Positions 42,473-61,493 of a stretch of 64,000 nt of DNA are shown piece after piece. Both the position numbers and the translations under genes were made by a program. The notes beneath the pieces are model-generated. The model saw only the letters and a list, made by a program, of their open reading frames with translations, was not told the origin of the DNA and made no database searches. Position 1 is the first letter of the stretch; each line of letters begins with the position of its first letter. Source of the DNA: Promethearchaeota archaeon (GTDB taxonomy: Archaea > Asgardarchaeota > Hermodarchaeia > Hermodarchaeales > Hermodarchaeaceae); assembly GCA_048938295.1 (NCBI GenBank), contig JBHLMI010000008.1, positions 14,082 to 78,081 of the forward strand, written 5' to 3'.

Positions 42473-44680
42473 ATGCGTGGCTGGATCCTCGACGTAACTC
42501 CCCGGTCCGACCACTTGGTCCTGTGGTTGCGCACGGCAGCAAAATGCATTCCCTTGGAAATACCTTATCAGCCACAATTCTACTTACACGCACCTGGCGT
42601 CCAATTCGAGAACTATGCGCCGCTGTTCGAGAATCACCCACTGGTATGCGCTGTGACCCCGGCGTTTCGTCGGCTGCAATTGCGAGGCGCGCGACGACCG
42701 GTTCTCGCCGTAACAGTCTCCTCCTGCACCCAACTCTCCCGAGTCGTTCACGAAATCAAAACCCTCGCTGTCCCCCGTTTTCGCGTCTTCAACGGCGATC
42801 TCTCCGCAACCCAGCTCTGGTACCTCGAGCAACGGCGCTTCCCCTTCGAGCAGGTGGAGGTCCACACCGACCAGTCGGGGTCCCGTGTTACCCACATCGA
42901 CTCCTGCGACTCCCGGTGGGCCCTCGACTACGAACTGCCGTCCTTTGATACTGTGGACCTCCACCTAGAAGGAGAAGACCTGTTCTGTGCCACCAGCACC
43001 TCTGGTGAGACGTTGCAGACCACAGAGCCCATGATGCTCCAGGATTGGATTAACATTCAAGATCCGGACATCATCTTCACCGAAGACGGCGACTACCGCA
43101 TCTTTCCTACTCTCATTCGACGCGTCCAAGAGGAGGGGATGTTGCACCAGTTTTCGTTGAGTCGGGACCAGACTCCCCATGTCTTCAGTGACAAGACTCT
43201 GCCTGCAGGTCGTGCTGTCTTCCGGTATGGCGGCCCAGTCTTTTATCGTCCACACCCCTTTCTGCTCCATGGACGTTTGCATCTGGACCGATCACACATG
43301 ACCTTCGGTAACTTCGACGGACTCATCGAATCAAGTCGAATTACCGCCTTTCCGCCCCAGCGTATGGCGCGAAGCAGCCCGGGCACCGGTATCAATATGC
43401 TCCAGATGCAAGAGGCACTCAACCGTGGTGTCCTGATTCCCGAAACCAAAGCCGACCCAGAAGAGTACAAGACCGGGCTTGAACTCCTCAACGCTGACCG
43501 GGGTGGCCACGTCATCACCCCGCGTGTTGGCATCTTCAGTGAAGTCGGCGAACTCGACTTCCTGTCCATGTATCCGTCGCTGATGGTCAAGTATAACATC
43601 TCGCCGGAAGCCTTGTTCTGCGACTGTTGCCCCGAGGACGCCACTGTGGTGCCCGAGATAGGCTATTGGTTATGTCGGCGCCAGCGCGGCATTGTCCCTA
43701 CCTTCCTTGAACCTATTCTCAAGAAACGAATCTACTACAAGCGACACCGCCATGATGACCCTATATACGAGGCGCGGCAAGCCGCGTTGAAATGGCTCCT
43801 CGTCGTCTCCTTTGGTTACCTCGGGTTTCGAGCCTCACGATTTGGTCGCGTCGAAGCCTATGAATGTGTCACAGCCTTCAGTCGACGGGTCCTGCTGCAG
43901 ACCAAAGCCGTCTGTGAACGCAAAGGCTTTGATGTGCTCCATGGCATCGTGGACTGCGTCTGGCTGCAGAAGCCCGGCGCCACTGTCGAAGACTACCTGA
44001 CCGCCGGCGAAGCCGTTGAGGAAGTGACCGGACTACCGATAGAATTTGAAGGCCGCTATCGGTGGATTATGTTCTTGCCTTGTCGCAATCAACCCTACGG
44101 CGCGCTGACACGCTACTGCGGAGTAAAACACGATGGTACCATTAAAGCCCGAGGCATTGAACTGCGACGCCGTGATACTCCACCGTTCATCAAGCAACTC
44201 CAGATGGACCTCCTCACTTGTCTGGCGGGAGCTGAAGACACTGATGAGATGCAGCAACTGCTCCCGCAATTGCTCGATATCGTCAAAGACTATCTTGACC
44301 TTTTGCACAGCGGTGGAATGACAACGGAGGACCTCATCATCACTCAACGCATCAGCCGATCCCCCCACGAATACCAGCAGCAGTGCAGCCAGGCCATTGC
44401 CGCTGAACTCGCCATCCGATACGGGCAAGACATCCAGCCAGGACAAGCCATTAAGTACGTGCACACCGACTCCACGTCTCGTCATCCATTGCGCCGTGTC
44501 GCGCTCCCCCACACCGCAGCAGCAGTCCACTATGACAAGGACAAATACACCGAGCTGCTGCTCCGCGCCGCCGATACCCTCCTGACACCCCTCGGTTGGA
44601 ATTACGAGCGGCTCACACAATACTTCAGCGATAAACCAGTCCAAACCTTGCTGGACTCTCATATTCGAGTGCGAAAGTAG
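42473..44680 (+). CDS. family-B DNA polymerase paralog (GC-rich; degenerate exonuclease motifs and degenerate motif C)
   Basis: N-terminus MRGWILDVTP.. resembles archaeal PolB N-termini. Pol motif A LDFLSMYPSLM, motif B KWLLVVSFGYLGF, KxY-region KARGIELRRRDTP. Motif C position reads VLHGIVDCVWL instead of YxDTDS. Exo I position is HLE instead of DxE; Exo II is DGDYRIFPTL. GC content of the ORF is about 58%, against roughly 40-45% in surrounding genes. Confidence 0.7.
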   Translation: MRGWILDVTPRSDHLVLWLRTAAKCIPLEIPYQPQFYLHAPGVQFENYAPLFENHPLVCAVTPAFRRLQLRGARRPVLAVTVSSCTQLSRVVHEIKTLAVPRFRVFNGDLSATQLWYLEQRRFPFEQVEVHTDQSGSRVTHIDSCDSRWALDYELPSFDTVDLHLEGEDLFCATSTSGETLQTTEPMMLQDWINIQDPDIIFTEDGDYRIFPTLIRRVQEEGMLHQFSLSRDQTPHVFSDKTLPAGRAVFRYGGPVFYRPHPFLLHGRLHLDRSHMTFGNFDGLIESSRITAFPPQRMARSSPGTGINMLQMQEALNRGVLIPETKADPEEYKTGLELLNADRGGHVITPRVGIFSEVGELDFLSMYPSLMVKYNISPEALFCDCCPEDATVVPEIGYWLCRRQRGIVPTFLEPILKKRIYYKRHRHDDPIYEARQAALKWLLVVSFGYLGFRASRFGRVEAYECVTAFSRRVLLQTKAVCERKGFDVLHGIVDCVWLQKPGATVEDYLTAGEAVEEVTGLPIEFEGRYRWIMFLPCRNQPYGALTRYCGVKHDGTIKARGIELRRRDTPPFIKQLQMDLLTCLAGAEDTDEMQQLLPQLLDIVKDYLDLLHSGGMTTEDLIITQRISRSPHEYQQQCSQAIAAELAIRYGQDIQPGQAIKYVHTDSTSRHPLRRVALPHTAAAVHYDKDKYTELLLRAADTLLTPLGWNYERLTQYFSDKPVQTLLDSHIRVRK

Positions 44681-47435: not shown

Positions 47436-47768
47436 ATGGCAGATAAAATAATTGTAATCATCACCTCAGGTGATAGAGGTGTTGTAAAAACCGCTTTGAT
47501 GTATGCTCGGAATACTCTGAAGTACAAATGGCTCGAAGATGTCAAAATCATCTTTTTTGGCCCCTCAGAACAATTGGTAGCCAACGACCCAGACCTTGCC
47601 AAGGAAGTTCAAGAAATCTGTATGCAAGGAGATGGTATTGCCTGTAAATTTATCTCGGATAATGAAGGCACCTCTAAATCACTTACTCAGCTTGGGCTCC
47701 AAATCGAATATGTCGGGGCCATCATTGCTGATTTCATTAAAGGCGGGTACATCCCAATGGTATGGTAA
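47436..47768 (+). CDS. DsrE/DsrF/DsrH-like small protein
   Basis: 110 aa. MADKIIVIITSGDRGVVKTALMYARNT.. resembles the DsrE-fold N-terminus; conserved Cys in GIACKF. Confidence 0.45.
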   Translation: MADKIIVIITSGDRGVVKTALMYARNTLKYKWLEDVKIIFFGPSEQLVANDPDLAKEVQEICMQGDGIACKFISDNEGTSKSLTQLGLQIEYVGAIIADFIKGGYIPMVW

Positions 47769-47779
47769 CCAATTTGCTG

Positions 47780-48040
47780 CTATATCGCAATGCAGGTTTC
47801 TGTGCGATTTACTCCATCCACACTATGGATACCTTCCATTACTTCCCTCAAATCCTCTGTAGAGGGAAGTACAGCATAAGCAATCACATCATAAGGTCCT
47901 GTTACGACATTGGATCGGTCGACACCTGAAATTTTCCCAATGGCTTGAGCGACATCCCATACCTTCCCTGCTTCAACCCGTATCAGAATGTATACAACTA
48001 CCGGCACTTCAATCACTACTTCAAAGTATATCTCAACCAA
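47780..48040 (-). CDS. stand-alone Lrp/AsnC C-terminal (RAM) domain protein
   Basis: VVYILIRVEAGKVWDVAQAIGKISGVDRSNVVTGPYDVIAYAVL matches the RAM-domain pattern. There is no HTH. Confidence 0.5.
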   Translation of the reverse strand: MVEIYFEVVIEVPVVVYILIRVEAGKVWDVAQAIGKISGVDRSNVVTGPYDVIAYAVLPSTEDLREVMEGIHSVDGVNRTETCIAI

Positions 48041-48104
48041 GATATTAATCTAATAGATACCATTACAGTCGCCACCATCAAAACCTTTGAGATGTTTATA
48101 AGCA

Positions 48105-48905
48105 ATGAAACTAGCTAAACCGATCTTTAACAACCTCTTCGAGGTGATTCAGAATCGTCGGTCAATGCGCCTATTCCTTGATAAACCGATCCCAAACAAT
48201 GCACTCGAAGTCATCCTCAAAGCAGGTTTTCGTGCCCCCTTCGCAGCCCAATTGTGCAGCCTCATCTACACACGTGATCGAAAGAAAATCGAAGACCTAG
48301 GGTTTCTGGGGGTATATCCGACAACACAGGTACTGATATTTTTTCTCGTTGATTTGAATCGCCACGAGAAGGTCATGAACCAGCGAGGGCACAAATACGA
48401 TTTTGATGATACTCTGGCTCTCTGGCTTGGTTTGCAGGATGTTTCCCTTGTTGTGGAAAACCTCATTCTAGCCGCAGAAGGTTATGGTTTAGGTTCCGTC
48501 TTGCTAGGTGCAACGCCTAATGCTGCTGATGAATTAACTAGGATGTTCAACATCCCTAAACGAGCCTTTCCAGTTGTTGGATTATGCCTAGGATATCCCA
48601 ATCCTGCAGAACACACCGAAATTCGGCCCAGGTATCCGCTTACCTTTAGTGCGTTTGAAGACAGATATCATCAACCATCAAAGGAGGAGTTACTAGAAGC
48701 CATGAAAGTCATGGATGAAGGGTATCTCGCTCAGGATTACTATATTGAGCGACGGGCAAAGATTCCGCTTCGGAAAGGGAAAGACACCATCGATTATGAC
48801 ACCTATTCTTGGTGTGAGCATATCTCCCGAAAATTCATTTCAGGTGGATGGTCGAAAAGATCATTACTTGATACATTGCGAAAACACGGATTCACCTTAG
48901 ACTGA
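48105..48905 (+). CDS. nitroreductase-family protein
   Basis: RRSMRLF..., ..AAEGYGLGSVLLG.. are typical of the nitroreductase fold. 266 aa. Confidence 0.55.
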   Translation: MKLAKPIFNNLFEVIQNRRSMRLFLDKPIPNNALEVILKAGFRAPFAAQLCSLIYTRDRKKIEDLGFLGVYPTTQVLIFFLVDLNRHEKVMNQRGHKYDFDDTLALWLGLQDVSLVVENLILAAEGYGLGSVLLGATPNAADELTRMFNIPKRAFPVVGLCLGYPNPAEHTEIRPRYPLTFSAFEDRYHQPSKEELLEAMKVMDEGYLAQDYYIERRAKIPLRKGKDTIDYDTYSWCEHISRKFISGGWSKRSLLDTLRKHGFTLD

Positions 48906-48913
48906 TGTCGCTG

Positions 48914-49567
48914 CTAGCCTGGGAAGTGTGGACCTGATAAAACTGGGAAATGATCCATTTGGCTCTTCAAGGCATCGAGTTTTTTGAGGAGTTCTTGGTG
49001 CATTGCGGTGATGCTCATAATCACCGTGCCATCTAGACTTTGCTTCTCAGCCAGCATTGCAGCTTCGTCTTGTAAGCGTCCAGCAACCGAGACCATATCC
49101 GCGAGTCGTTGAATCATGCTTTTCATCAGGGTTTCCGTATCGCTGATGACAATGCGATCGGAGCGGAAAATCTGTTTCACATCAAAGCCGTTGAAGCTGA
49201 GTGGCTTATCCTTATATTGGTCAATAACTTCAGCGGTGTACGATTGAAGGAATAAGGAGCTTAACCGGTTCAGCGCATCATTGAGCTCAAACTCATCATG
49301 ATCGTTTGATGACAGAATCACAAAAACGAGACTCTCAAACACGTTAAAAGCCATTTTTACTTGTAACAACCGCAACCGTTCTAAAGCTCCTGCATTCCGC
49401 AACACATTCACAAGAGTGACTGCAAGAGTCGAAAACACGGAGGGATCCATCCCAATCGCCGCCAACCGACTTTTACCGGCAGGAGCCAAGTGGAAGAGTG
49501 GATTCTCAGTTTGCCGATGCACTATGAGGATATCATGGATCATTGTAGCCTTACCTTCCCAACACAA
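48914..49567 (-). CDS. hypothetical protein
   Basis: 217-aa ORF with no clear motif; likely start at internal ATG (MIHDIL...). Confidence 0.35.
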   Translation of the reverse strand: MCWEGKATMIHDILIVHRQTENPLFHLAPAGKSRLAAIGMDPSVFSTLAVTLVNVLRNAGALERLRLLQVKMAFNVFESLVFVILSSNDHDEFELNDALNRLSSLFLQSYTAEVIDQYKDKPLSFNGFDVKQIFRSDRIVISDTETLMKSMIQRLADMVSVAGRLQDEAAMLAEKQSLDGTVIMSITAMHQELLKKLDALKSQMDHFPVLSGPHFPG

Positions 49568-49701
49568 GTGTCTTTCAAAGACCTGTCTAACTAATTTTGT
49601 CAGATACGCTCTTAAATCGATTGCCTAGGTACTGACATTTCCAACTAAAATCCGAGAAAAGATGTAGCCAAAAAACACCTCATGAAAGGTTTCTGTCACC
49701 A

Positions 49702-50973
49702 TTATTCTCTATGGATTCTTCTATTCTGAGTATATTTGTTGATGATTAGCAGAGAAGCTGCTATTCCGAAGATTAAGGCCAAGAAGCCAGCTAGATTTAC
49801 AAAAGCATTTGGTGTTGAAGCTGAGTCTGATAGTGAGGGTAATACGTAGTCTTTGACAAGATTAAGAAACGGAACACCATCAGGTTCTTCAGCTGTAACC
49901 ACAATCACTAAGTCATGTTGGGGAATGACGCAGATCCCCTGACCCCCAGCACCAAACGCAGCGTAAGCACCAATAATGGGATAGATTATCCAATGGTATC
50001 CATAACCATAGCCGGGACAGAACATCGTATGCATTTGTGTTGATTCAACAACCCACTCTTCCGAAATCACCTGTTGCTGTTCCCATCGCCCCTTATGTAA
50101 ATAGAGAAACCCATACTTGGCCATATCTCGTGGTAAGAGACTAAGTCCAAAACCACCATAATTGATTCCCTGACGATCCGACTCCCAATAGTGGCGTGTA
50201 ATCCCTAGGGGTTGAAACAAATGCTCAGCAGCAAAGTGGTGCATACTTTCTCCGCTAGTGACGGTGATGAGTGTTGAGAGCATGGATGAGGCACCCGTGT
50301 TGTAGTACCATTTCCAATTGGGTGCACATTCCATCGGCAAATCAAGGAAGAACTGGACACTATCCTCACTCTGTATCCATTGCACAAAGGAATTTCTTGA
50401 ATCATCATAAGAGTAGGTTCCTTCATCCCATTGAAGGCCTGTTTTCATTGTTAACAAATCCCGAACAGCAATCATATCCTTCAATGGGTTCGGGTTTGCC
50501 ACGGTCCGGTTAGGAAAATATGCGAGAACAGGATCCTGAATATTGCCAATATAGCCTTCATCGACCGCAATCCCAAAGATGCCTGCGGTGACGCTCTTAG
50601 TGACAGAAGCGAGAAAGTGAAGCTGATTCTCATCGTAGGCAGGATTAGGATAGGTTTCGAAGACAATGTATCCATGGTGCACGACCAAGAAAGCGTTATA
50701 GCACAGCTCATAAGAATTTAGCTTCGCATCTAATAGGTCCAAGAGACGTGAATCCATGCCCTGAGATTCCGGAGAAGCGAATAGCCAACCATCAGTGGGC
50801 CAATAATCTGGTTCACTTGGAGTACCATTAAGGTTCGATGAAGGTAGTGCGGCACTCACTGGAATGAGAAAAAACAACACAACCCAGAGAACCTGAAACC
50901 GAACATTCACTTGCCGTACCTCAGGTAGACCAGCCTCCAATCTAGTAGTTAAAAACTCAAATGATACAGGCAA
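49702..50973 (-). CDS. serine beta-lactamase/esterase family protein with N-terminal signal-anchor and C-terminal TM
   Basis: SxxK motif in FLASVTKSVTAG. C-terminal TM LAGFLALIFGIAASLLII. Confidence 0.6.
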   Translation of the reverse strand: MPVSFEFLTTRLEAGLPEVRQVNVRFQVLWVVLFFLIPVSAALPSSNLNGTPSEPDYWPTDGWLFASPESQGMDSRLLDLLDAKLNSYELCYNAFLVVHHGYIVFETYPNPAYDENQLHFLASVTKSVTAGIFGIAVDEGYIGNIQDPVLAYFPNRTVANPNPLKDMIAVRDLLTMKTGLQWDEGTYSYDDSRNSFVQWIQSEDSVQFFLDLPMECAPNWKWYYNTGASSMLSTLITVTSGESMHHFAAEHLFQPLGITRHYWESDRQGINYGGFGLSLLPRDMAKYGFLYLHKGRWEQQQVISEEWVVESTQMHTMFCPGYGYGYHWIIYPIIGAYAAFGAGGQGICVIPQHDLVIVVTAEEPDGVPFLNLVKDYVLPSLSDSASTPNAFVNLAGFLALIFGIAASLLIINKYTQNRRIHRE

Positions 50974-50985
50974 ATCACAAAAGAA

Positions 50986-51315
50986 TCACAATTCGGCTTG
51001 CACCCGTCGCACAAACCCTTGGTAGTTGTGATTAGCAATCGAGCTCGCATGACCTGCCACCGTGGCCAGAGCCAGACGCAACTGTAGCACCTCCTGATAC
51101 AGCCCCAGGATCATAGACATAAACAAGGCTTCAGAGGCACACGGACGAGCCACAGCACTGGCTGCATCCGCATAGGTCCGCGCATAGACAAAGAGGTTAT
51201 CAAAGGCGGGTTGCTCGTCGGCACGCAACGCGGCACGAAAGATTCCCCAACGCCGGCGCTCCTTTTCCAGTTGTAGTCGATAGGTAGGTACTGTACGTCC
51301 CATCAAACACACCAC
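50986..51315 (-). CDS. hypothetical GC-rich small ORF immediately downstream of the RNR gene
   Basis: 109 aa with GC-rich codons. No motif recognised. Confidence 0.3.
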   Translation of the reverse strand: MVCLMGRTVPTYRLQLEKERRRWGIFRAALRADEQPAFDNLFVYARTYADAASAVARPCASEALFMSMILGLYQEVLQLRLALATVAGHASSIANHNYQGFVRRVQAEL

Positions 51316-51409
51316 CGGTGAGACTGGACGTACGGCTAAAAAGGCACCAGCACTGATGCAAGAAATCGCCCATCATTCCCCAGGAATGACCCAGTTCTTG
51401 CTGTCACCC

Positions 51410-54400
51410 CTAGGGGCTGTCCGTGAAGCGGACATCCTCACAAGTCGGGCACCCAGCATACAACACCTGCAGTCCTTCCAGGGATCCATCACGGAACACG
51501 GTGATGCCCTTCAACCCCAACTCATCCGCCAACAAGAATACCCGACGAATATCCTCCGTCGAAGCGTTGTTAGGCACATTAACGGTTTTGCTTACTGCAT
51601 TGTCTGTGTGTTTCTGGAAGGCTGCTTGCACGCGCACATGCCATTCAGGATCGATTTCATGAGCAGTTTTGAACAAGCGCTTGATATCGTCTGGTACACC
51701 TTCCACGTCCTGTACAGATCCCGTCGATGCCACTTCCTGCTCAACAGCTTCACACCAGAAGCCACGTTCTTCAGCAATTTCGACGAAGTATCTGTTTGTA
51801 TCCGTCAAGCGGACACCTTCAGTGAGTACCCGATCATGCACAATAGCAAACAAAGGTTCAATCCCACTACTGGTCCCCGCAATCAAGCTAATACTCCCAG
51901 TAGGGGCAATCGTGATTAGCGTTGCATTCCGCTTCCATTTCCGACGCTGCTTCAATAAATCAATGTGCTCGAAGTTACCCCGCACCTTCGCCAGTTCCGC
52001 TGACGCCCGCTCCGCACGATTCCGAATGAACTCCATCACCTGTTCCGCTAATTCCAAGGCTTTCTCGGAATCGTATGGAATCCGCAGCTGAATGAGCATC
52101 TCCGTCCAGCCCATAATCCCAAGCCCAATCTTCCGCGTGGCTTTGGTCTGAATGGCAATCTCTTCCACCGGATACTTATTCAAATCAATAATATTATCCA
52201 AGAACCGCACCGCCAACGGAATAATTTCACCCAACCGCTTCCAATTCACCTCACCATCCTCCACTAGGCGGGATAAGTTGATGCTACCTAACACGCACGA
52301 CTCGTAAGGCAAAAGTGGTTGCTCACCACAATTTGAAACAATGATTCCTGATAGTTTTTTGTTCCCCTTTTTGCTTTCATACTCTCTAGTTATCGTGGCA
52401 AAATTATGATAGTCATCTACCGTGATGTTATAGACATCGGAGATTCCACAATCTTGAACCGAAGCAACTCGATGATTCAATTCAGCAATGGCAGGTTTGT
52501 TTAATGCCCTATAGGTATTGGAACAACCTCTTGAACAACATACCTGTGGTTTTGATTTGATATACTCAATTCGCGTACCACAAACCGGACACTCGCCTTC
52601 CAAATTACTATCTTTCCACCTTTCTTTCGCAGCTATGCTTATTTTCTCCCGAATTTCTTGATCAGCCATTACTTCATTCATTCTTTCTCGGAAAATCTTG
52701 CTAAACTTCTTGTCAGAGAATCTTCTTCGGGTTGATTCACTAATTTTTACTCTTGTTTCATACGAGTGAATTCTGCCGAACATACCATTGTCTTCACCAG
52801 ATCTCCCAACAGCCAGGTGTTCCTTAATCCAATCCTCTGGCATACGATGATAGGGATTGTTAGATCCAAGCATATCTCGTCGATGAAGCTTTCTGTGCTC
52901 ATGGGATGTCATAATTTGAATATTTGCCCATGAATTATCCAATGTATCATAGTTTATGTGATGAACAACCTCACTTCGCTTTAATTTCCGTCCAAGCATA
53001 AATTCTGCAATTATTTTATGCTCTCCACGATGAAACACATTCTGATTTTGATGAATATGCCAATACTTGCTTTTCTTACCTCGTTGTCTGTATTGAATCT
53101 TGAAAAATGGCATTATTCGATCCCCCTCCTTCAGGCTGCCTGCTTCAACATAAGAACCGTCCCTTAGCATCACTCTATGGTTTTTAGTGAGTTTGAGAGA
53201 ACTATTATCATCAAAAGTAACTTCAACAATTGGAACTTGTTCTCTTGTTTTTCTTGGATTTCGACCCATTCTGACAACCATCCCATCGCCTGACCAACAA
53301 AAGACTGGAACACCTCTACCCTCTCGGGCAAGGTCCTCAATTGACACATAATTTCTCCCATCAGCGACGGCAATAAGCGTATCACCAGAAACACACGGAT
53401 TCGTTGATTCTATTTGTTTGCCTTTGAGGGGGTGTTCGTCGTTAATGCGATCGATGAAGATCATGCCGGGGTCCCCGGTGTTCCAGGCGTTCAGGATCAT
53501 AGAGTCGAAGATCATGCGAGCACTGATGGTTTGCTCGACTTCACCGGTGTGAGGGTTGATCAAGTCGATGTTCCCACCGGTTTTCAAGGCATGCATGAAC
53601 TCGTGGGTGACGGCGACGGAGATGTTGAAGTTACGGAAGGATTTCTTGTCGGCTTTCGCACTAATGAACTCCATGATATCCGGATGATCACACCGCAAGA
53701 TAGCCATGTTCGCACCGCGTCGCTTGCCTCCTTGTTTAATAACATCGGTAGCAGTATCATAGATGCGCATGAAGGAGACTGGACCGCTGGCGACTCCACC
53801 TGTAGATCCGACTGTTGTACCCTTTGGTCGGAGCTGAGAAAAAGAGAATCCCGTATTGTGTACTACCACAAGATGGCCATTTCCTGCTAGATAATTCTGG
53901 TTTATCGGAACAGAGAAGTCATAAAGAGTGGCACTTTCCCCTTTAATTTCTACATCTTTTACCTGAATTCTACGAAAACTGAATGGCTTATGTTTGCTTA
54001 GTCGGGGTTTCCGTTCGGTCGGGAATAAACGTCCATAGCCTGTTGAGAAAGCAATTTCCCATCCTGTGGATCGAATACCAAAACGGGTTCTATCTCGTCT
54101 TCTAACCTTGTAATTTATTCCGATCATTGCGAGGAGGCTGGAGAGAAAGTCCTTTAGTGAGTCTGATGATGTGTAAAGACTTATCACATCTCGACCAAAG
54201 TAGCCATCTCCGTCTAATAGCCCAGCAATAAAAGAAAATGGTGCACCAGGTATGAATTGAGGAGTTAGCTTATCTTCCCCAACGATTTCGTATAAATGAT
54301 AAATGAATGAATCTTTCTTTTTGGTAGTGGTTTTTAGAATATAGCAATTTTCTCTTGGATCTTTTTGTAGCTTCAATCGGCGTGTGTTTCTATACTTTGC

Positions 54401-55543
54401 AATGATTCGATTTGCTCTTTGAAGAATTTCCTGACGTTCATCAAATAGACGTAGTCTAAGGCCATTGACTGTTATATCAAAACATCCATCAGCTATGATA
54501 TATCCAATTAGCCACCAGAGACTGGCTTCCTTCTCAGTGAGTGGAACATCAAAAATCCCATTCTTCAGTAATGAATCACCTGAAACGAGCTCATCTGCAC
54601 GTTTGATTTGGATTTTCTCGCCATTCCATACATAAAAAGGGTGCCAACAACTGGTTTCGATTTGTCCATTTGAACCATACGAGATTCGTACTGTTTTGTC
54701 TAAGGCGAATTTCCATCCCTGACTTACAGGTCGTTCTTCAAAGATTTGCAGTACAGGATTCCATGAATACAAGGTAATTGGAGATATTGTTTGTGGGAAT
54801 CCTGTGATAGTTATATCTTTCATTCCGGGAATCTGCTCTATTTCTACTAGCCCATGTTCTTTTGTTAAGACCTTTGTTCCTTCTTTGACACACCCACCGC
54901 CAGATTTCTGAACTCGGGCCATATGCCAGAGGGTGTTGAAGATGGAGTCGATGTCGTCGCGAATTGGTAGCACAAAGCAAGCGCTGAGTTGTCCGATATC
55001 GGTGCCAGCGTTATAGAGGGTGGGGCTGTTAGGCATGAACTCGAGGTTGGCGATCATATCATAGAAGAGCTGTTCGTAGGTTTTATAGTCGGCACTTTTA
55101 TCGAAGATCTTTTCGGCTTTTGCGACTGCTTTCGCGACGCGATGGAAGAGTTGTGATGGGGTTTCGATGGGAGTACCGTCATCGTCTTTGAGGAGGTAGC
55201 GTTTGGCCACTGTGGCGGCGTTCGGTCCTAATTTCAGATCGTCGACTACCCCTACGGTGCGGAGTAGGCGTCGTGCAACGGCTCGTTTCTCGCGGTATTT
55301 GATGTAGCGCTTTGCTGTCTCAGTATAGCCGTTGACCATTAGTACTTCTTCAACGATATCTTGGATTTCTTCAATGTGAATTGTGTCAACGTTTTTGTTC
55401 TTGATGATTTTGATAACTTTGTCTGTTAGTTTTTTTGCAGGTTTTGAATCTGCTTTATGTGATTCAAAAGCACGTCGAATGGCGTTCTCGATTTTGGTTG
55501 GATCCCAGTCAACAATACGTCCGTCACGTTTCTCAACTTTCAC
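51410..55543 (-). CDS. nrdJ: class II (adenosylcobalamin-type) ribonucleotide reductase with N-terminal ATP-cone and two inteins
   Basis: GTG start. ATP-cone VEKRDGRIVDWDPTKIENAIRRA. RNR blocks PNSPTLYNAGT, KSGGG|TGFSFSQLRP, ESTNP|CGEQPL (active-site Cys), C-terminal Cys pair GCPTCED. 1377-aa precursor; about 676-aa spliced protein. Confidence 0.9.
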   Translation of the reverse strand: MKVEKRDGRIVDWDPTKIENAIRRAFESHKADSKPAKKLTDKVIKIIKNKNVDTIHIEEIQDIVEEVLMVNGYTETAKRYIKYREKRAVARRLLRTVGVVDDLKLGPNAATVAKRYLLKDDDGTPIETPSQLFHRVAKAVAKAEKIFDKSADYKTYEQLFYDMIANLEFMPNSPTLYNAGTDIGQLSACFVLPIRDDIDSIFNTLWHMARVQKSGGGCVKEGTKVLTKEHGLVEIEQIPGMKDITITGFPQTISPITLYSWNPVLQIFEERPVSQGWKFALDKTVRISYGSNGQIETSCWHPFYVWNGEKIQIKRADELVSGDSLLKNGIFDVPLTEKEASLWWLIGYIIADGCFDITVNGLRLRLFDERQEILQRANRIIAKYRNTRRLKLQKDPRENCYILKTTTKKKDSFIYHLYEIVGEDKLTPQFIPGAPFSFIAGLLDGDGYFGRDVISLYTSSDSLKDFLSSLLAMIGINYKVRRRDRTRFGIRSTGWEIAFSTGYGRLFPTERKPRLSKHKPFSFRRIQVKDVEIKGESATLYDFSVPINQNYLAGNGHLVVVHNTGFSFSQLRPKGTTVGSTGGVASGPVSFMRIYDTATDVIKQGGKRRGANMAILRCDHPDIMEFISAKADKKSFRNFNISVAVTHEFMHALKTGGNIDLINPHTGEVEQTISARMIFDSMILNAWNTGDPGMIFIDRINDEHPLKGKQIESTNPCVSGDTLIAVADGRNYVSIEDLAREGRGVPVFCWSGDGMVVRMGRNPRKTREQVPIVEVTFDDNSSLKLTKNHRVMLRDGSYVEAGSLKEGDRIMPFFKIQYRQRGKKSKYWHIHQNQNVFHRGEHKIIAEFMLGRKLKRSEVVHHINYDTLDNSWANIQIMTSHEHRKLHRRDMLGSNNPYHRMPEDWIKEHLAVGRSGEDNGMFGRIHSYETRVKISESTRRRFSDKKFSKIFRERMNEVMADQEIREKISIAAKERWKDSNLEGECPVCGTRIEYIKSKPQVCCSRGCSNTYRALNKPAIAELNHRVASVQDCGISDVYNITVDDYHNFATITREYESKKGNKKLSGIIVSNCGEQPLLPYESCVLGSINLSRLVEDGEVNWKRLGEIIPLAVRFLDNIIDLNKYPVEEIAIQTKATRKIGLGIMGWTEMLIQLRIPYDSEKALELAEQVMEFIRNRAERASAELAKVRGNFEHIDLLKQRRKWKRNATLITIAPTGSISLIAGTSSGIEPLFAIVHDRVLTEGVRLTDTNRYFVEIAEERGFWCEAVEQEVASTGSVQDVEGVPDDIKRLFKTAHEIDPEWHVRVQAAFQKHTDNAVSKTVNVPNNASTEDIRRVFLLADELGLKGITVFRDGSLEGLQVLYAGCPTCEDVRFTDSP
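52331..53395 (-). mobile_element. intein 2 (355 aa) with HNH homing endonuclease, inserted at the active-site NP|CGE cysteine
   Basis: Starts CVSGDTLIAV (block A), ends GIIVSN with +1 Cys (the catalytic Cys of NPCGE). HNH motif EVVHHINYDTLDNSWANIQIMTSHEHRKLH. Additional CPVCG..CCSRGC Zn-finger. Penultimate Ser instead of His. Confidence 0.8.
53855..54892 (-). mobile_element. intein 1 (346 aa) with LAGLIDADG homing endonuclease, inserted in the GGG|TGF motif
   Basis: Starts CVKEGTKVL (block A), ends HLVVVHN with +1 Thr. Two LAGLIDADG motifs: LIGYIIADG and FIAGLLDGDG. Boundary codons checked against the nucleotide sequence. Confidence 0.8.
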
Positions 55544-55586
55544 AGGATAAGCCTCCCATTAACGCCCAATTGCATGGATAGTTTCG

Positions 55587-55650
55587 GCGCACTCAAGCAG
55601 TGTCTCTGCTTAAATGCCTTCAGGTCTTTTGATGGCATTTCTGAGTGCGC
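55587..55650 (-). promoter_or_regulatory. nested hairpin structure in the RNR 5' leader
   Basis: Outer 9-bp stem GCGCACTCA / TGAGTGCGC (55587-55595 and 55642-55650) encloses two small hairpins: AGCAG/CTGCT and AAATGCC/GGCATTT. It starts 44 nt upstream of the RNR start codon. Confidence 0.25.
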
Positions 55651-55763
55651 AAAGTGTTACGGCTAGGCTCTAGCCGAACCAGATATTATACTGCACGCTG
55701 GGATTTAACTCCCAAGATTTTCAAGAGGTTAAGTGAAGTGAACCCAAGACGAAGGTATTGAAA

Positions 55764-56441
55764 CTACAATTCTGTTTTGGCGATAGTTTTGCCTAAATTG
55801 GTCGTGAGATCAACTCGGAACCAAGTTCCGGCAACGATGTTTTCGAATTCAAACAGATCTGCTAATGGGTCGTCTTCGGTGTTCTGGAGGACAAGTTTTC
55901 CATCCCCAGCTAGCCCTTCATGAATGACGAAATCTAATTTGGCTGCAGTGATATGCTGCACGTCATAAGATTCACCGTCAACACTTGGAATGATTTTGAG
56001 GTTAATGGTGTCCCCTGTGTCAATCCATTCTCCAGGTCCTTCAAGGTCTATATCAAACTTCATTATAGGAACCTTATTGCTGAGAACTTGAGCTTTAATT
56101 CGGTTCTCTCTGCGAGAATACTTGAACTTGCCAGGTTTAGAAGGGAAGCCCCAGATTTCTCGATGAGCTACCATTGAAACAATATTATCAGTGTGCATGG
56201 TGACGCAATAGACGCCGAAATACGCTTCATAAAGACATTGTACCACGATCGCTGATTCCCAAATATCCCCCCACGGGGAGTTGCGGAACTGAGCAAGATA
56301 AGCCCCCCCCAATAACCCGGGTGTAAGGGGTTTGGGGAGGATTCGTTCTAGGCAGTTTTTTGTTGGTTGGAAAATTACTTGGATCATTTCTGAATCCGTA
56401 TAGCGAAGTGGCCCTTGAAACCAGGGCTTATAGACTGGCAT
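55764..56441 (-). CDS. acetoacetate-decarboxylase-like (ADC family) protein
   Basis: AQFRNSPWGDIWESAIVV resembles the ADC-family xYRDSPVGPY block. Start at internal ATG (MPVYKPW). Confidence 0.5.
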   Translation of the reverse strand: MPVYKPWFQGPLRYTDSEMIQVIFQPTKNCLERILPKPLTPGLLGGAYLAQFRNSPWGDIWESAIVVQCLYEAYFGVYCVTMHTDNIVSMVAHREIWGFPSKPGKFKYSRRENRIKAQVLSNKVPIMKFDIDLEGPGEWIDTGDTINLKIIPSVDGESYDVQHITAAKLDFVIHEGLAGDGKLVLQNTEDDPLADLFEFENIVAGTWFRVDLTTNLGKTIAKTEL

Positions 56442-56586
56442 GGTCAATTGTTTCGTCAACCTTATTCCACATCCTTCCACAACTCATAATGTGTGACGAA
56501 TTAGCTCATCTATGCAGATTTCACCTTTTAATTCTACGTCTATGAATTGCAAAAGCCACAGAGTTCTAAAATAAAGCATTAAAAGA

Positions 56587-56820
56587 ATGAGAAATTTAGT
56601 TGAAGTGATAATGATGCGAACAATCGATATCGTGTGCCCATTATTATTGCTTGCCATTGCGCTCCTAATCACTTGGATTTTAGTTCTGATGAATCCAGTG
56701 ATCCTTCCCTTTGCCTTGGGCTTCGCGGTCCTCCTTGTTATCTTCATTCTTCTTTCCTTTTGTACAGGACGGTATACTCGAAAGGATGCATCTGACCAAG
56801 TCTTGACCTACAAACGCTAG
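56587..56820 (+). CDS. hypothetical small 2-TM membrane protein
   Basis: 77-aa hydrophobic ORF. Confidence 0.3.
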   Translation: MRNLVEVIMMRTIDIVCPLLLLAIALLITWILVLMNPVILPFALGFAVLLVIFILLSFCTGRYTRKDASDQVLTYKR

Positions 56821-56835
56821 AATCCGTTCCGTGAC

Positions 56836-57240
56836 TTAAGGGAAGAATATGAAAAACATGTAGTCGATGATAAAGTCAATTACGAAGATAAGAATCACTG
56901 CAATAGCTACGATTGTCAAACCACGGACAAACATCGTATCGAAGAAATGCTGTACCAAAACCATCCAAACAATGAAGGTAGCTAGCAGGCCAACCACAGT
57001 CCAAGCAAAGATAACAATCTCATTCAACCCGGGAACAAGAACGTAGCTGATGGTCCAATCAATCCCCAGCTTCAGTAACAACCCCAGCAGCGCGACGAAA
57101 ATTGCATCCGTGACCTTGGCATTAACACCAGAGAGCAGCCGACCTGCTGCAAAGAATGCAATCGTCGCCACAATGAAACTCACTATAAAAGTTACAACAG
57201 CGTCAATCTGAGCAGGTGAAAGGAACAGCACCATTGTCAA
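56836..57240 (-). CDS. hypothetical 4-TM membrane protein
   Basis: 134-aa hydrophobic ORF. Confidence 0.45.
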   Translation of the reverse strand: MTMVLFLSPAQIDAVVTFIVSFIVATIAFFAAGRLLSGVNAKVTDAIFVALLGLLLKLGIDWTISYVLVPGLNEIVIFAWTVVGLLATFIVWMVLVQHFFDTMFVRGLTIVAIAVILIFVIDFIIDYMFFIFFP

Positions 57241-57310
57241 CTCCTATTCGACTAGCGGTAAGATACGAAGCTGCTTCCCTAAATAGCTTCGCCAAAGTGT
57301 TCATTGCAAA

Positions 57311-57805
57311 GTGATTGACATGATTAAGGCTAGGCTTATATCACAGAAGCCACCAAATCCTAAGCCACACGTCCGCATGGAGGATCACACGATGAGCAGT
57401 AAGAAGACCGTCAGCGAACGAATCAAAACCGCGTCCATCGCCCAAATAACCGGCATCGTCCTCATCTGGTACGCAATCAGCATCATCACCTCCCGCCTTA
57501 TCACCGTCATAATCGCCCCTGGCATAAGCATTGAATCCGGTATCTACCATTATCATCACGTATTATGGGGATTGATTCTTATGATGATGGGAGGCTTCAT
57601 AGCCTTGTATTGGGAAAGTCGACGCGCCAAAGTCTTTGGGGCCTTTTTCCTGGGTTTAGGACTGGGGCTAGCGGTAGATGAAGTCGGACTCATTTTAGTC
57701 ACTGCAGATTCTGGGTATTGGGATCCTATCACGTATCCCGTTATGATTATCGTGGCTCAAGTGCTCTTTATTGCATGGATGGTTGCCCGGCAACAAGGAC
57801 GATAA
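57311..57805 (+). CDS. hypothetical membrane protein
   Basis: 164-aa ORF with 4 predicted TM helices; the start may be at the internal ATG (MSSKKTV). Confidence 0.45.
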   Translation: MIDMIKARLISQKPPNPKPHVRMEDHTMSSKKTVSERIKTASIAQITGIVLIWYAISIITSRLITVIIAPGISIESGIYHYHHVLWGLILMMMGGFIALYWESRRAKVFGAFFLGLGLGLAVDEVGLILVTADSGYWDPITYPVMIIVAQVLFIAWMVARQQGR

Positions 57806-57811
57806 TACAAG

Positions 57812-58807
57812 CTAGCGTTCTTCTTGCAAGCTCTCTAGGCTCTCAATTACAACGTCACGCTGTCCCTGTCGGGTGAGGCTCCGCAGAAACGTTCCTAGCA
57901 CACCCACTTCACTGACACCAAGCCGTTGCATGGCATGAATTGTTCGTTTTTCGAAATCATCTAATGAGAGGGCTTGCGGGTCAATTCCAATGAACTCTAC
58001 TAAACTCGATTCCGTCTTGACCTCCACCACCACATCTTCATGAACGGGTTGTGGTTCGCTTGGTGGTGGAATTGGTGTGGTGTCTGGTGCGTTTACTGGT
58101 GGTGGTTCCATCGGGACCACTACTTCAGGTTCAATAGCTGGCTCCGGTTCAGGTTCAGGCGTTACCTCAACCACTGGTTTAGGAATTGGCTCAATGTTCG
58201 GCGTAGGAGCCACAGGTTCCGGTTCTGGAACTGGCGCGGGAGCGGCAGGTTCAGCAGGTGGTGGTGTAGGCGCCTCTTCCACTTGGCCTGGCCACTTGGA
58301 TCCAATAATCGTTTTTGCCATTAGAATAAATGCGTCTCCCACATTTTCGTCCATCTTCGCACTTGTCTCAACATACTGCAACCCCGCTTGCGCCGCAAAG
58401 GCCTCCGCCTCCTCACGTGACACAACACGCTGATCCAGCAAATCCGTCTTATTCCCAATCAGAATCCCTGGAATATTCCCTGCATTCTTCCGCGTCTCTT
58501 CCAGCCAACCAGCAAGGTGCTCAAAGGACGACCGATCAATTACACTTAACACATAAATGACACCGGTTGAGCCCTGATAGAACAAGGGACGCACACCCCC
58601 AAAATGGGGTTGACCTGCCAAGTCCCAAATTTGCAACTTGACAATTACAGTCCCAAGATCAACAGTCTTTACGGCAAAAGATGTACCAATGGTCATTTTG
58701 TATGTGTCGGTAAAGGTCCCCTGTGTATACCGGACAATAAGACTGGTTTTACCCACGGCGCCGTCGCCAGCAACAGGGACTTTGAAGATGTAGGTCGCTT
58801 TACTCAT
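57812..58807 (-). CDS. Ras/Rab-family small GTPase fused to a Pro/Glu-rich linker and a ~75-aa C-terminal domain
   Basis: G1 GDGAVGKTS, G3 WDLAGQ, G4 GNKTDL, G5 ETSAK. Residues 173-255 are PEPEPE/PAP repeats; then ..EFIGIDPQALSLDDFEKRTIHAMQRLGVSEVGVLGTFLRSL.. Confidence 0.8.
   Translation of the reverse strand: MSKATYIFKVPVAGDGAVGKTSLIVRYTQGTFTDTYKMTIGTSFAVKTVDLGTVIVKLQIWDLAGQPHFGGVRPLFYQGSTGVIYVLSVIDRSSFEHLAGWLEETRKNAGNIPGILIGNKTDLLDQRVVSREEAEAFAAQAGLQYVETSAKMDENVGDAFILMAKTIIGSKWPGQVEEAPTPPPAEPAAPAPVPEPEPVAPTPNIEPIPKPVVEVTPEPEPEPAIEPEVVVPMEPPPVNAPDTTPIPPPSEPQPVHEDVVVEVKTESSLVEFIGIDPQALSLDDFEKRTIHAMQRLGVSEVGVLGTFLRSLTRQGQRDVVIESLESLQEER
58043..58291 (-). repeat. low-complexity Pro/Glu/Ala/Val-rich coding repeat (linker of the GTPase)
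   Basis: EPAAPAPVPEPEPVAPTP...TPEPEPEPAIEPE. The nucleotide level shows GGTTC/GGTGG periodicity. Confidence 0.6.
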
Positions 58808-58935
58808 AGACAGTGTCTCCTTTAGGGGGTCAGTAAGGTGCTTAGGTATTTATTTTCTATGTTGGCTTTTAACTCGATTGGTGGTCCTTGCGTTTTACTT
58901 CGTTGGTGAATAGAAACACTACGTATTGAGCGTAG

Positions 58936-59622
58936 TTAATGCTCTTCGTCATCGTTGAAAGTCTCAAGCTGTTCGGGTGTGACGACCAAGATAGTGGTTT
59001 GATGATGAACCTCCTTGGTGTGGACTTGCTTTTTGGAGCGTCGTCGGCTGAAACCCAAACAGCTCACATTACAGACACAAGGAATAACGATGAGGACAAT
59101 GACACCAATAACAAGAATATATACGAAGAGGCTACTGAGTGACTCAACCGGATTTGTCGGAGTTGTTGGAACATTAGTTGACCATTGATAACGTGTGAGG
59201 CGGAGGGTAAAGTAGAGAGTGAGAGATCCTGTGTTGTTAAGGACAAAATACCACTGGCTCTGATGGGGTAGGTCGACGATGGTGTGGAGGCTGTAGTTGA
59301 CGACAGTAGTGTATTGGCAGTGGCTGGAAGAGCCGGTATCTAGCCATTGGTTGTAATCGACTTCGTCACAAACAAGGAGTGTGGTGGGGTGTAAGCCAAA
59401 ACCGCTGATGGTGAAGTTGATGCCCCACCGTTCTGTAGGCCCACGAGAGGCATTGAAAGTCCATTGGCTATTGCCAAGAAGAGGTTCGAAGTAGCCGATG
59501 TAGTCTTGTCCGGTTGCGATCCAATAACCCTCATAGGCGTCAACGGTAGAGATAGTAAAGATCACGAAAAAGAGTAGTAACAACAGCAGATAGGTGCGCA
59601 GATGTTGGGCCCGCATGGGCAT
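58936..59622 (-). CDS. secreted protein with signal peptide, C-terminal TM and Cys-rich tail
   Basis: From internal ATG: MPMRAQHLRTYLLLLLLFFVIFTISTVDA (signal). C-terminal TM LFVYILVIGVIVLIVIPCVCNVSCLGF. Confidence 0.45.
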   Translation of the reverse strand: MPMRAQHLRTYLLLLLLFFVIFTISTVDAYEGYWIATGQDYIGYFEPLLGNSQWTFNASRGPTERWGINFTISGFGLHPTTLLVCDEVDYNQWLDTGSSSHCQYTTVVNYSLHTIVDLPHQSQWYFVLNNTGSLTLYFTLRLTRYQWSTNVPTTPTNPVESLSSLFVYILVIGVIVLIVIPCVCNVSCLGFSRRRSKKQVHTKEVHHQTTILVVTPEQLETFNDDEEH

Positions 59623-59991
59623 TACCTCTGCATTTGCCGCGTGATTTGGTCGCTTTTTATTTGTTTCGGTCCAAGCGAGTGGTTCCCCTCGCTCCCCTCT
59701 CCTCCATGAACCCCCGTGATGGAATAGATTCTGAAGTACGTGGTTAGTTGTCGCAATCGATGACGGTGTCGTCATCTGGTAGATAGGTTATTCGCCATTT
59801 GCGGGGATGCAAATAGGGGCGTTGGGGTTCCACTCGAATGTCACCGGTCATGTTGTTCACCAGTAACCCCTCTAATCAGAAGGTGACTTAAATAGTCTGA
59901 GAGGGTGGCTGCCAACTAATATTCTCTTGGGATTAGTTGGAGAACCGTTCATTTCGTTGGGCAAGAGGTTATAAAGTACAGGTTTCAAAGG

Positions 59992-61113
59992 ATGGTATCG
60001 GTTGATGTTCATAGGTGTATTCAGATGACAATGACTTTAGCTCGTCAAATTATCCGGGATGCTTTGCGAGTGCGTGATCAAGAAAGAGTATGGATTCATT
60101 CGTGGGATCACACTTTGGAGTTAGCGCAGGAAGTGGCGCAGCAAGCATATCTACACGGGGCCTCAGTAACTCTTACTTTAATGACAGAGACTTTGCTTTC
60201 GCATATTCTGAAGAAAGCTCCGCAAGAAGCCGTAACTACGACACCGGCCCATTGGTTAGCAGGAGTGGGAAAGTCCGATGTGTTGATCGTATTAGATGGT
60301 CCCAATGATCCTGCTCCACTTAAAGCTGCAGACAAAGGGAAGGCGCTTTACGCTTCTGGGCAAATCATCCAGCTTCTCAGCACGGCAGTGTCAAATCGAG
60401 TACGGACACTTTTCGTTCGATCAACGGCGTTCACCGAAGCAGCAGCTAAGGCTTATGGGATTTCACATTCAACCCTAATGCAAGAAAATAACCAATGTAT
60501 GTCAGCGACCCAGTCAGCCATAATCAATTTGGGAAACCGTATCACAGCACTTCTTAGTAAGCACAGAGAGATTCATCTCAGTTCCAGTGAAGGAACAGAC
60601 CTGCGATTCCGGACCCGTGGTCGCCCACTCATCGATGATGGTATTATTGATCAAAATGACTTGCAAACCAAAAATGTCCTAGCCCAGATGCCTGCAGGGT
60701 CCGTCTCTATTCCCGTTGACCCGACCAGTGCTGAAGGCACAGTAGTCTTCAAGTGGCCTCGTGCATACCTTGGCGACACAATTGAAAATCTTCGACTGGA
60801 TTTCAAGAAAGGGCAAGTCGTTGGCACCAGGGCGCTAAAAGGTGAAAAGACCATCGAAGAAGCACTACAGGCTGGAAAAGGAACAAAGGACCAACTCACT
60901 CGCTTAACCTTTGGCATTAATGAGAAAGCCACAACCCACCTTGGACAGCCCCTCGACGATTTGATTCCAGGCTCAATCACACTGGGATTGGGAGCGAATA
61001 CATTCTTGGGGGGGAGTAGCCACAGCAACATTGCTTATAGTCATACCCTTAACGATGCCATTGTGAGCATTGGGCCTACAGCTATTATCATGGACGAAAA
61101 ACTCACGATTTAA
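59992..61113 (+). CDS. M29-like aminopeptidase (thermophilic metalloprotease family), tentative
   Basis: 373 aa. ..HLSSSEGTDLRFRTRGRPLIDDG.. resembles the Peptidase_M29 central block. Confidence 0.4.
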   Translation: MVSVDVHRCIQMTMTLARQIIRDALRVRDQERVWIHSWDHTLELAQEVAQQAYLHGASVTLTLMTETLLSHILKKAPQEAVTTTPAHWLAGVGKSDVLIVLDGPNDPAPLKAADKGKALYASGQIIQLLSTAVSNRVRTLFVRSTAFTEAAAKAYGISHSTLMQENNQCMSATQSAIINLGNRITALLSKHREIHLSSSEGTDLRFRTRGRPLIDDGIIDQNDLQTKNVLAQMPAGSVSIPVDPTSAEGTVVFKWPRAYLGDTIENLRLDFKKGQVVGTRALKGEKTIEEALQAGKGTKDQLTRLTFGINEKATTHLGQPLDDLIPGSITLGLGANTFLGGSSHSNIAYSHTLNDAIVSIGPTAIIMDEKLTI

Positions 61114-61127
61114 CACCAAAACAGCAC

Positions 61128-61493
61128 TCACGATGAGCTGGTTTCATCAATAAGAATAAGGATAGCCCCAATCACAAGAAGTAATCCAGCAATCCCCCAC
61201 GCACCAATAGCTACAATAATACCCAAACCTACCAAATACAAAGCAGCGCGCATGGGATCTACTTGAAACCACTGAGGAAATCTATTGAGAATAAAATAGC
61301 AGATGCCTAGTGCGAAGATGCTGATAATCAGCATCAGTATCTCATAGACATTCACTGCAAGATATGGTGGACCAATCCCTAACAACACAGTATAACCCCA
61401 ATATAAGCTCGAAAGAAGACCCAACACCAATCCCAGAATCGCGCCAACGCGAACAAGATACCCCGCGGTCTCAATCAATTCCATCGATATCAC
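61128..61493 (-). CDS. hypothetical 3-4 TM membrane protein
   Basis: 121-aa hydrophobic ORF with architecture similar to the next ORF. Confidence 0.45.
   Translation of the reverse strand: MISMELIETAGYLVRVGAILGLVLGLLSSLYWGYTVLLGIGPPYLAVNVYEILMLIISIFALGICYFILNRFPQWFQVDPMRAALYLVGLGIIVAIGAWGIAGLLLVIGAILILIDETSSS

Follow-up and report, generated by a model that had tools for sequence, protein, structure and literature searches.

The class II ribonucleotide reductases (RNRs) of Pyrococcus furiosus and P. abyssi are interrupted by several inteins: PI-PfuI (Pfu RIR1-1; PDB 1DQ3), PI-PfuII and the three Pab RIR1 inteins. In another type of intein, present in Synechocystis GyrB, NifU/IscU, RtcB and viral relatives, the Hint domain is interrupted by an HNH nuclease; the GyrB intein is said to have been described by Dalgaard and coworkers in 1997. 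Here, we describe an nrdJ gene for a class II RNR with one intein related to each of these types, located on the minus strand at positions 51410..55543 of a 64,000-nucleotide stretch of DNA (hereafter referred to as the window) from the Asgard archaeon Promethearchaeota archaeon (contig JBHLMI010000008.1). As in Pyrococcus, the host is an archaeal class II enzyme with several inteins, and the first of them (intein 1) is homologous to PI-PfuI and inserted at the same GGG/TG site, with a Thr at position +1 (slashes indicate insertion points). However, intein 1 has 346 amino acids (aa) rather than the 454 aa of PI-PfuI and lacks its stirrup domain, the intein at the second site (intein 2, site B) has an HNH rather than a LAGLIDADG nuclease, and the host, of a mesophilic type, belongs to the Asgard archaea and not to the Thermococcales. 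In the match to the NCBIfam model of the Pyrococcus precursor (NF006207), the middle extein (218-371) stands as a block of its own, suggesting, together with the data of Dassa et al. (2009), that the Pyrococcus insertions lie at the same two sites.

Contiguous inteins of class I and class II RNRs are found most often at the site beside the thiyl-radical cysteine (Dassa et al. 2009, PMC2677866). Intein 2 resembles the inteins described there in being inserted directly N-terminal to this cysteine, which serves as its +1 nucleophile, whereas the NrdJ-1 split intein lies one residue beyond site B (NPC/SE). Site B is mostly occupied by LAGLIDADG inteins with a ...VVHN end, among them the 332-aa inteins of nearly all relatives from the Thorarchaeota; intein 2, by contrast, belongs to a separate HNH lineage. 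Both sites and both types of intein are thus already well known, and the locus is in this respect an ordinary example that leaves current knowledge of inteins and RNRs as it was. We consider it highly probable that this chromosomal Asgard nrdJ, from an archaeon with its nearest relatives among metagenome-assembled genomes of Hermodarchaeota and Thorarchaeota, was independently colonised by two selfish class-1 inteins, each predicted from its sequence to be spliced out after translation and to home by means of its own nuclease.

The host enzyme and the two insertion sites

The precursor open reading frame (ORF), for which all coordinates below refer to the minus strand, starts with GTG and specifies a protein of 1377 aa (51410..55543, stop codon included). 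It is free of stop codons and frameshifts over its 4.1 kb, and the ORFs within it on the opposite strand are short and without support. Pfam identified an ATP-cone, RNR_lgN, RNR_lgC and two Intein_splicing matches in the precursor, with the RNR barrel split; the product spliced in silico, 676 aa long after the removal of both inteins, covered positions 1-522 of the 523 of RNR_lgC as a single stretch. The spliced protein scored 693.7 bits against TIGR02504 NrdJ_Z (cutoff 399.95), and among solved structures it was closest to the B12-dependent enzyme of Thermotoga maritima (E=2.5e-129). In this alignment, STNPCGE corresponded to T. maritima residues 318-324 (1xje/1xjk), with NPCGE placed on Asn320-Cys322-Glu324, LSACF on Cys134 and YESCVLGS on Cys333. 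We take Cys322 of the T. maritima enzyme to be the thiyl-radical cysteine, and Cys134 and Cys333 to be the redox pair. Because of the NrdJ_Z match and the alignment of the catalytic and redox cysteines, the host gene is classified as a class II RNR gene with an allosteric ATP-cone, and dependence on cobalamin is predicted.

The ATP-cone, the allosteric activity domain, occupies aa 1-88 (55280..55543; PF03477, 85-86 bits) of the N-extein (aa 1-217; 54893..55543), which ends in ...VQKSGGG and includes the redox cysteine of LSACF (54974..54988), located by alignment to T. maritima NrdJ. The middle extein (precursor aa 564-716, residues 218-370 of the mature protein; 53396..53854) extends from TGFSFSQLRP to ESTNP, and the C-extein (precursor aa 1072-1377 and the stop codon; 51410..52330) from CGEQPLLPYESC to a C-terminal CPTC tail. 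This tail (...YAGCPTCEDVRFTDSP; 51440..51451) contains one CxxC pair and no longer Cys-rich zinc-finger tail; the pair is kept in the relatives L001 (CPSC) and L013 (CPTC) considered below, and presumably acts as the shuttle dithiol by which the active site is reduced again.

Site A lies in the GGG/TGFSFS loop, at G217/T218 in mature numbering, and is occupied by intein 1 (precursor aa 218-563; 53855..54892), a class-1 intein of the PI-PfuI lineage flanked by ...VQKSGGG and TGFSFSQLRP. Its junctions are GGG/CVK and VHN/TGF, encoded by GGG/TGT GTC AAA ... GTA CAC AAT/ACG. Intein 2, also of class 1 (355 aa, precursor aa 717-1071; 52331..53395), is flanked by ...QIESTNP and CGEQPLLPYESC, with junctions TNP/CVS and VSN/CGE (AAT CCG/TGT GTT TCT ... 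GTT TCA AAT/TGT GGT GAG). The TGT codon at 52328..52330 encodes both Cys+1 of intein 2 and Cys371 of the mature protein, the thiyl-radical cysteine of the NPCGE loop according to the alignment to T. maritima Cys322.

An original prediction made from the DNA sequence had proposed most of this architecture. The class II RNR with an N-terminal ATP-cone and a spliced length of 676 aa was borne out by Pfam, NrdJ_Z, the T. maritima alignment and the length of the L001 orthologue. The 346-aa intein 1 with two LAGLIDADG motifs, splitting GGG/TGFSFSQLRP, was recovered from its junctions, Pfam and the 1DQ3 alignment, and the 355-aa intein 2 with an HNH motif and a Cys4 finger from its HNH_3 match and the conserved CxxC...CSxxC core. 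The identity of its +1 nucleophile as the active-site cysteine of NP/CGE agreed with the T. maritima alignment, and all boundary codons were reproduced on the nucleotide sequence. The position of site B in mature coordinates, previously given as 371/372, is corrected here to P370/C371.

Relationships of the two inteins

Intein 1 has Cys1, a TSCWH block B and a C-terminal VVHN with penultimate His345 and terminal Asn346, followed by Thr+1. Both inteins exceeded the cutoff of Pfam Intein_splicing (PF14890; 46.5 and 39.9 bits, cutoff 35.8), and LAGLIDADG_3 was detected in intein 1 (E=8.5e-13). The first LAGLIDADG motif (LIGYIIADG; 54485..54511) was identified by alignment with motif 1 of PI-PfuI and is conserved in the alleles P0001-P0003; the second (IAGLLDGDG; 54203..54229) is supported by LAGLIDADG_3, the PI-PfuI alignment and the same alleles, and the catalytic Asp is kept in both motifs. 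The alignment with PI-PfuI (1DQ3; E=2e-20) spans blocks B, F and G and both LAGLIDADG motifs (TSCWHPF versus TSPWHPF; LIGYIIADGCFD; IAGLLDGDGYF; C-terminus YDFSV..QNYLAGNGHLVVVHN). A PI-PfuI-type intein with an end-to-end match to 1DQ3 (P0053; E=9e-164) is located at GGG/TG with a Thr+1, which identifies site A as the classical site of PI-PfuI. Intein 1 falls within a subgroup of 346-aa inteins without the stirrup domain, and its nearest alleles (P0001-P0003, from Asgard metagenome proteins) are 70-73% identical to it, with both catalytic Asp residues retained. Its nuclease is classified by sequence as a PI-PfuI-like, double-motif LAGLIDADG homing endonuclease.

Intein 2 has Cys1, a TKNH block B, block F DVYNITVDDYHNF and a GIIVSN block G, preceded by a 17-aa F-G linker; its C-terminal end consists of the penultimate Ser354 and the terminal Asn355, followed by Cys+1. 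The HNH nuclease domain (core VVHHINYDTLDNSWANIQIMTSHEHRKLH; 52883..53020) was detected by Pfam HNH_3 (aa 842-884; 30.6 bits, cutoff 24.8), and a VHH ... N(L) ... EH..LH pattern is kept in every member of the family possessing this domain, which is accordingly classified, by motif, as an HNH homing endonuclease. A NUMOD3-like DNA-binding motif (NGMFGRIHSYETRVKISES; 52733..52789) gave a weak Pfam NUMOD3 match (E=0.0045), with a conserved ET..I pattern. The Cys-rich finger (CPVCG-x13-CCSRGC; 52523..52591) has a conserved CxxC...CSxxC core and presumably forms a DNA-binding zinc ribbon. An extra segment between blocks F and G (ATITREYESKKGNKKLS; 52349..52399) is a trait of the clade of HNH inteins at site B. 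An AlphaFold2 (AF2) model of intein 2, obtained from an alignment without the L013 row, had a mean predicted local distance difference test (pLDDT) score of 81.5, with values >90 in the Hint parts; the finger contained two short strands and the F-G segment was part of a beta-hairpin. The model matched dozens of solved inteins with a probability of 1.0, and a sequence search of the PDB with intein 2 retrieved no chain matching the nuclease part; no intein with an HNH domain is known to have been solved structurally. The NCBIfam model RtcB_rel_intein2 matched intein 2 with 98 bits, and its N-terminal Hint half (C[VIL]xGDTLxAxADGR) resembles those of GyrB intein P0141 and NifU intein P0125.

In an alignment of twelve relatives, Cys1, T70 and H73 of block B, and a VYNxTVDxxH block F with His330 were invariant, the CxxC...CSxxC finger was present, and block G ended in x-N or x-Q. 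None of the 12 aligned members had a penultimate His, the position being occupied by Ser, Lys, Arg, Ala, Gln or Leu, and blocks F and G were separated by 8-16 additional residues in all of them, including two natural mini-inteins without a nuclease (P0129, 145 aa; P0126, 202 aa). The penultimate Ser noted in the original prediction is real (Ser354), and the alignment identifies it as a character of the clade. We rejected its interpretation as a degenerative lesion of a single copy, as Ser is also present in L013 and P0005 and His is missing throughout the clade. More distant HNH inteins (in GyrB and viral genes) have ordinary ...VFVHN ends, and the viral HNH-type inteins of other host genes end in a canonical GVFVHN, whereas the clade at RNR NP/C and the intein at NifU PA/CGD lack the penultimate His and sometimes have a terminal Gln.

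The clade is also found at NP/C in the RNRs of other archaea, bacteria and two viral contigs. In these two IMG/VR contigs (L082 and L083), class II RNR genes contain an intein of the clade at NP/C that ends in ...IYIVSKQ/CGE, with a terminal Gln; viruses are thus possible vectors for the clade. A 549-aa NifU/IscU-like protein (P0125) has a 321-aa intein of the clade (33% identity over 97% of the query) at GSPA/CGD, the active-site cysteine of this Fe-S scaffold. The P-x/C-G-acidic likeness of this site to NP/CGE suggests that similarity between homing sites let the intein jump between unrelated hosts. In two partial bacterial NrdJ sequences (P0132 and P0133), the HNH family is inserted at ...NASNPC/CITGDTLIAVADG..., one residue downstream of site B, such that the catalytic cysteine remains in the N-extein; the C-termini are missing from these sequences. 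This position corresponds to the 'NrdJ' integration point in NPC-S-E RNRs (Dassa et al. 2009, PMC2677866), and one family of HNH inteins would accordingly use two insertion points one codon apart, judging from the N-terminal junctions of P0132 and P0133.

Replacement of the penultimate His by Gly, Lys or Ser with retention of splicing has been described, and the block-F His has been proposed as the compensator (Chen, Benner & Perler 2000; Kelley et al. 2016, PMC5050341). Intein 2 resembles these His-less class-1 inteins in combining Ser354 with an invariant block-F His330; however, the published cases are different inteins from other host proteins, and compensation by His330 in the HNH clade is putative. 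A broader proposal is that the HNH inteins at catalytic Cys-Gly-(Glu/Asp) sites, which extend from NP/CGE in the RNRs of archaea, bacteria and viruses to PA/CGD in NifU/IscU, constitute a structurally distinct subfamily, in which the F-G hairpin and the block-F His would jointly replace the penultimate His in Asn/Gln cyclisation, and in which pairing between Cys1 and Cys+1 could make RNR maturation redox-conditional. We regard this combined proposal as speculative and rather improbable.

Allele distribution, selection and alternative explanations

Among the 120 homologues obtained in a first protein search, 86 had an intein at NP/C, and 31 of 141 proteins had one at GGG/TG. At least five insertion points were present among the homologues, the others being close to residues 260, 621, 526 and 172-190. 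LAGLIDADG and HNH inteins are also combined in a single RNR in P0041 and P0064, and no close relative with both of the window inteins was found among the homologues and genome loci compared. In the closest genome loci, no intein insertion was present in 13 of 18 (one of the 13, L081, being a partial gene only); the distribution is therefore sporadic.

In a genome scan with one genome per species, the orthologue of a Promethearchaeota metagenome-assembled genome (L001; H2S.129) was uninterrupted (676 aa, 84.5% aa identity), and about ten further intein-free genes were found in Thor- and Hermodarchaeota at about 70% identity. The Hermodarchaeota genome FT1_005 (L013) is collinear with positions 47518..61452 of the window over 13 kb, at about 87% nucleotide identity, and the only break in collinearity is a 1038-bp gap coinciding with intein 1. 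In its 1031-aa precursor, site A is empty and site B contains the same intein 2, likewise of 355 aa and 90% identical at the aa level. The junction peptides are identical in the uninterrupted L001 and, for site A, in L013. The empty site A of L013 reads CGAGTTCAGAAGTCTGGCGGTGGT/ACGGGGTTCTCCTTTTCTCAGCTC, with 4 synonymous differences over 48 nucleotides (nt) from the window flanks, and the empty site B of L001 reads ATGCAAATTGAATCCACCAATCCC/TGTGGCGAAATGCCATTACTTTCC. The search for empty alleles suggested with the original prediction thus yielded one relative without both inteins and one lacking only intein 1, through a precise indel. A nrdJ protein essentially identical to that of L013 is encoded on a 2.6-kb contig (L081/P0122; GCA_007050885.1) labelled 'Candidatus Bathyarchaeota', next to the same acetoacetate decarboxylase neighbour; site A is empty and site B is filled by the HNH intein. 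The assignment of this contig to the Bathyarchaeota probably reflects an error in binning.

The converse distribution was also observed: P0001 and P0002 have the intein-1 allele and an empty site B, and in P0003 both sites are occupied, site B by a LAGLIDADG intein. No sequence similarity was detectable between inteins 1 and 2. Because of these separate allele distributions (L001, L013, P0001 and P0002) and the lack of mutual similarity, the two inteins are well supported as independent acquisitions, in agreement with the independent invasions originally proposed. We also considered the derivation of intein 2, by nuclease swapping, from the LAGLIDADG intein (332 aa) present at site B of most Thorarchaeota. 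This was rejected, because the two have only a weak, generic similarity in the N-terminal part of the Hint domain (94 aa; E=5e-5 to 0.016). As judged by sequence, at least two lineages of inteins have entered site B in Asgard archaea.

For the exteins of the window and L013, synonymous divergence (dS) was 0.427, nonsynonymous divergence (dN) 0.029 and their ratio (omega) 0.068; the corresponding values for intein 2 were 0.368, 0.047 and 0.128. The similar dS values indicate that intein 2 was present in the common ancestor and diverged in step with the host gene. Omega was 0.10 in the N-terminal Hint part, 0.147 in the nuclease and 0.116 in the C-terminal Hint part. Intein 2 is thus constrained throughout, which argues that it splices and that its nuclease domain is still useful; the purifying selection on an extein that carries it gives splicing further, indirect support. 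Both inteins are AT-rich (intein 1, 39.3% GC and 30% GC at third codon positions (GC3); intein 2, 39.4% and 32%) relative to the extein (50% GC, GC3 0.56) and to the 27 other long ORFs of the window, the GC3 of which (mean 0.46, range 0.37-0.65) was always above that of both inteins. As the most AT-rich coding DNA of the window, they have the composition expected of mobile or weakly adapted elements.

Established intein chemistry suggests the following course for the proposed double colonisation. An N-S acyl shift at Cys1 of each intein would be followed by transesterification to Thr218 (intein 1) or Cys371 (intein 2), the nucleophile of intein 2 being the very cysteine on which the thiyl radical is later formed. 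The terminal Asn would then cyclise, and a further acyl shift would leave the three exteins joined as the native 676-aa RNR, with the radical-bearing Cys371 regenerated. In intein 2, the invariant block-F His330 would probably act in place of the penultimate His in Asn cyclisation. In the DNA, alleles without an intein would be cut by the LAGLIDADG nuclease at site A and by the HNH nuclease at site B, and repair would copy the inteins into them.

Several observations weigh against this reading. The C-terminal chemistry of intein 2, with its lack of a penultimate His, is less certain than the rest, and the Pfam splicing-domain match ends 22 residues short of the C-terminus of this intein. Comparison with L013 revealed no co-conversion tract around site A (8 differences over 90 nt close to the site, equal to the gene average), and recent homing of intein 1 into the window lineage therefore leaves the indel as its only trace; loss of intein 1 in the L013 lineage stands as a formal alternative. 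The assembly is, moreover, probably metagenomic, and the exact protein has no record in the public collection. These last two points, like the absence of a close relative with both inteins among those compared, would fit a decaying pseudogene, or an intein 1 insertion that is an assembly artefact, in a cell using another RNR. We find such an explanation hardly credible, given that the long ORF is intact, that the insertion is of exactly 346 codons, lies at a canonical site for inteins and has the canonical residues at its junctions, that the extein of a gene carrying intein 2 has been under strong purifying selection (omega 0.068), and that all the catalytic residues of the RNR and the inteins are present.

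A more serious alternative is that the inteins splice and that one or both nucleases are inactive, leaving fixed, immobile passengers late in the homing cycle. Vertical inheritance of intein 2 since the split from L013, evident from the similar dS of intein and extein, makes ongoing homing unnecessary, the mini-inteins P0129 and P0126 demonstrate that nuclease decay occurs in the clade, and intein 1 has already lost the stirrup domain relative to PI-PfuI. However, omega for the nuclease of intein 2 remains close to that of its splicing domain, the His/Asn/His residues of the HNH domain, the cysteines of the zinc finger and the Asp residues of both LAGLIDADG motifs have all been retained and are conserved, and the patchy presence and absence of inteins in close relatives is the pattern produced by active homing and loss. 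We therefore judge immobility unlikely, with perhaps one chance in a few of being correct. Co-option of intein 2 as a redox-gated switch, in which a disulfide between Cys1 and Cys+1 would block RNR maturation until the cell is reduced, appears very improbable. The two cysteines do lie at either end of the intein, which was kept under purifying selection over a dS of about 0.4, and disulfide trapping between the catalytic cysteines of intein precursors is documented for other archaeal inteins in a study cited by a review. Nevertheless, nothing specific to such a switch was found, the arrangement of the cysteines is dictated by a very common insertion site, the intein-free state of most of the closest loci indicates no apparent dependence of the host on intein 2, and AT-rich composition and an intact nuclease are more in keeping with a selfish element. 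Colonisation by two selfish, self-splicing homing inteins thus remains our preferred reading.

Genomic surroundings and implications

The neighbours of nrdJ are ordinary chromosomal genes, including those encoding a beta-lactamase-family hydrolase, an acetoacetate decarboxylase (also found upstream of nrdJ in L081), a Ras-family GTPase and a PAS histidine kinase, among others. An Rfam scan of the whole window, covering a possible cobalamin riboswitch upstream of nrdJ, gave no match. The 331-aa protein encoded at 57812..58807 (minus strand) has an N-terminal Ras/Roc small-GTPase domain (E=7e-48); it is an Asgard-type eukaryotic signature protein and is consistent with the taxonomy of the window. 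At 42473..44680 (plus strand), an ORF encodes a 735-aa family B DNA polymerase, with DNA_pol_B (residues 309-677) as its only Pfam match. This ORF is an outlier in composition (GC 56.5%, GC3 0.65; the other long ORFs average 46% and 0.46), and may have been acquired horizontally or derived from a virus or another element.

Two results of this analysis remain of modest interest: the C-terminal architecture peculiar to this clade of HNH inteins, and the three-state allele series, with both sites empty (L001), the HNH intein only (L013) and both sites filled (window) at orthologous, syntenic loci. The series provides ready target sequences for the two homing endonucleases. The comparison with L013, dated by a dS of about 0.4, indicates that an HNH intein can be kept by purifying selection through vertical descent, and the at least five insertion sites among the homologues are further evidence that Asgard RNR genes are an intein hotspot. 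The His-less HNH clade, with its extra F-G segment and mini-inteins of 145-202 aa, may be of interest to protein engineers and, if the proposal of a distinct HNH subfamily proved true, it would represent a new variant of C-terminal splicing chemistry.

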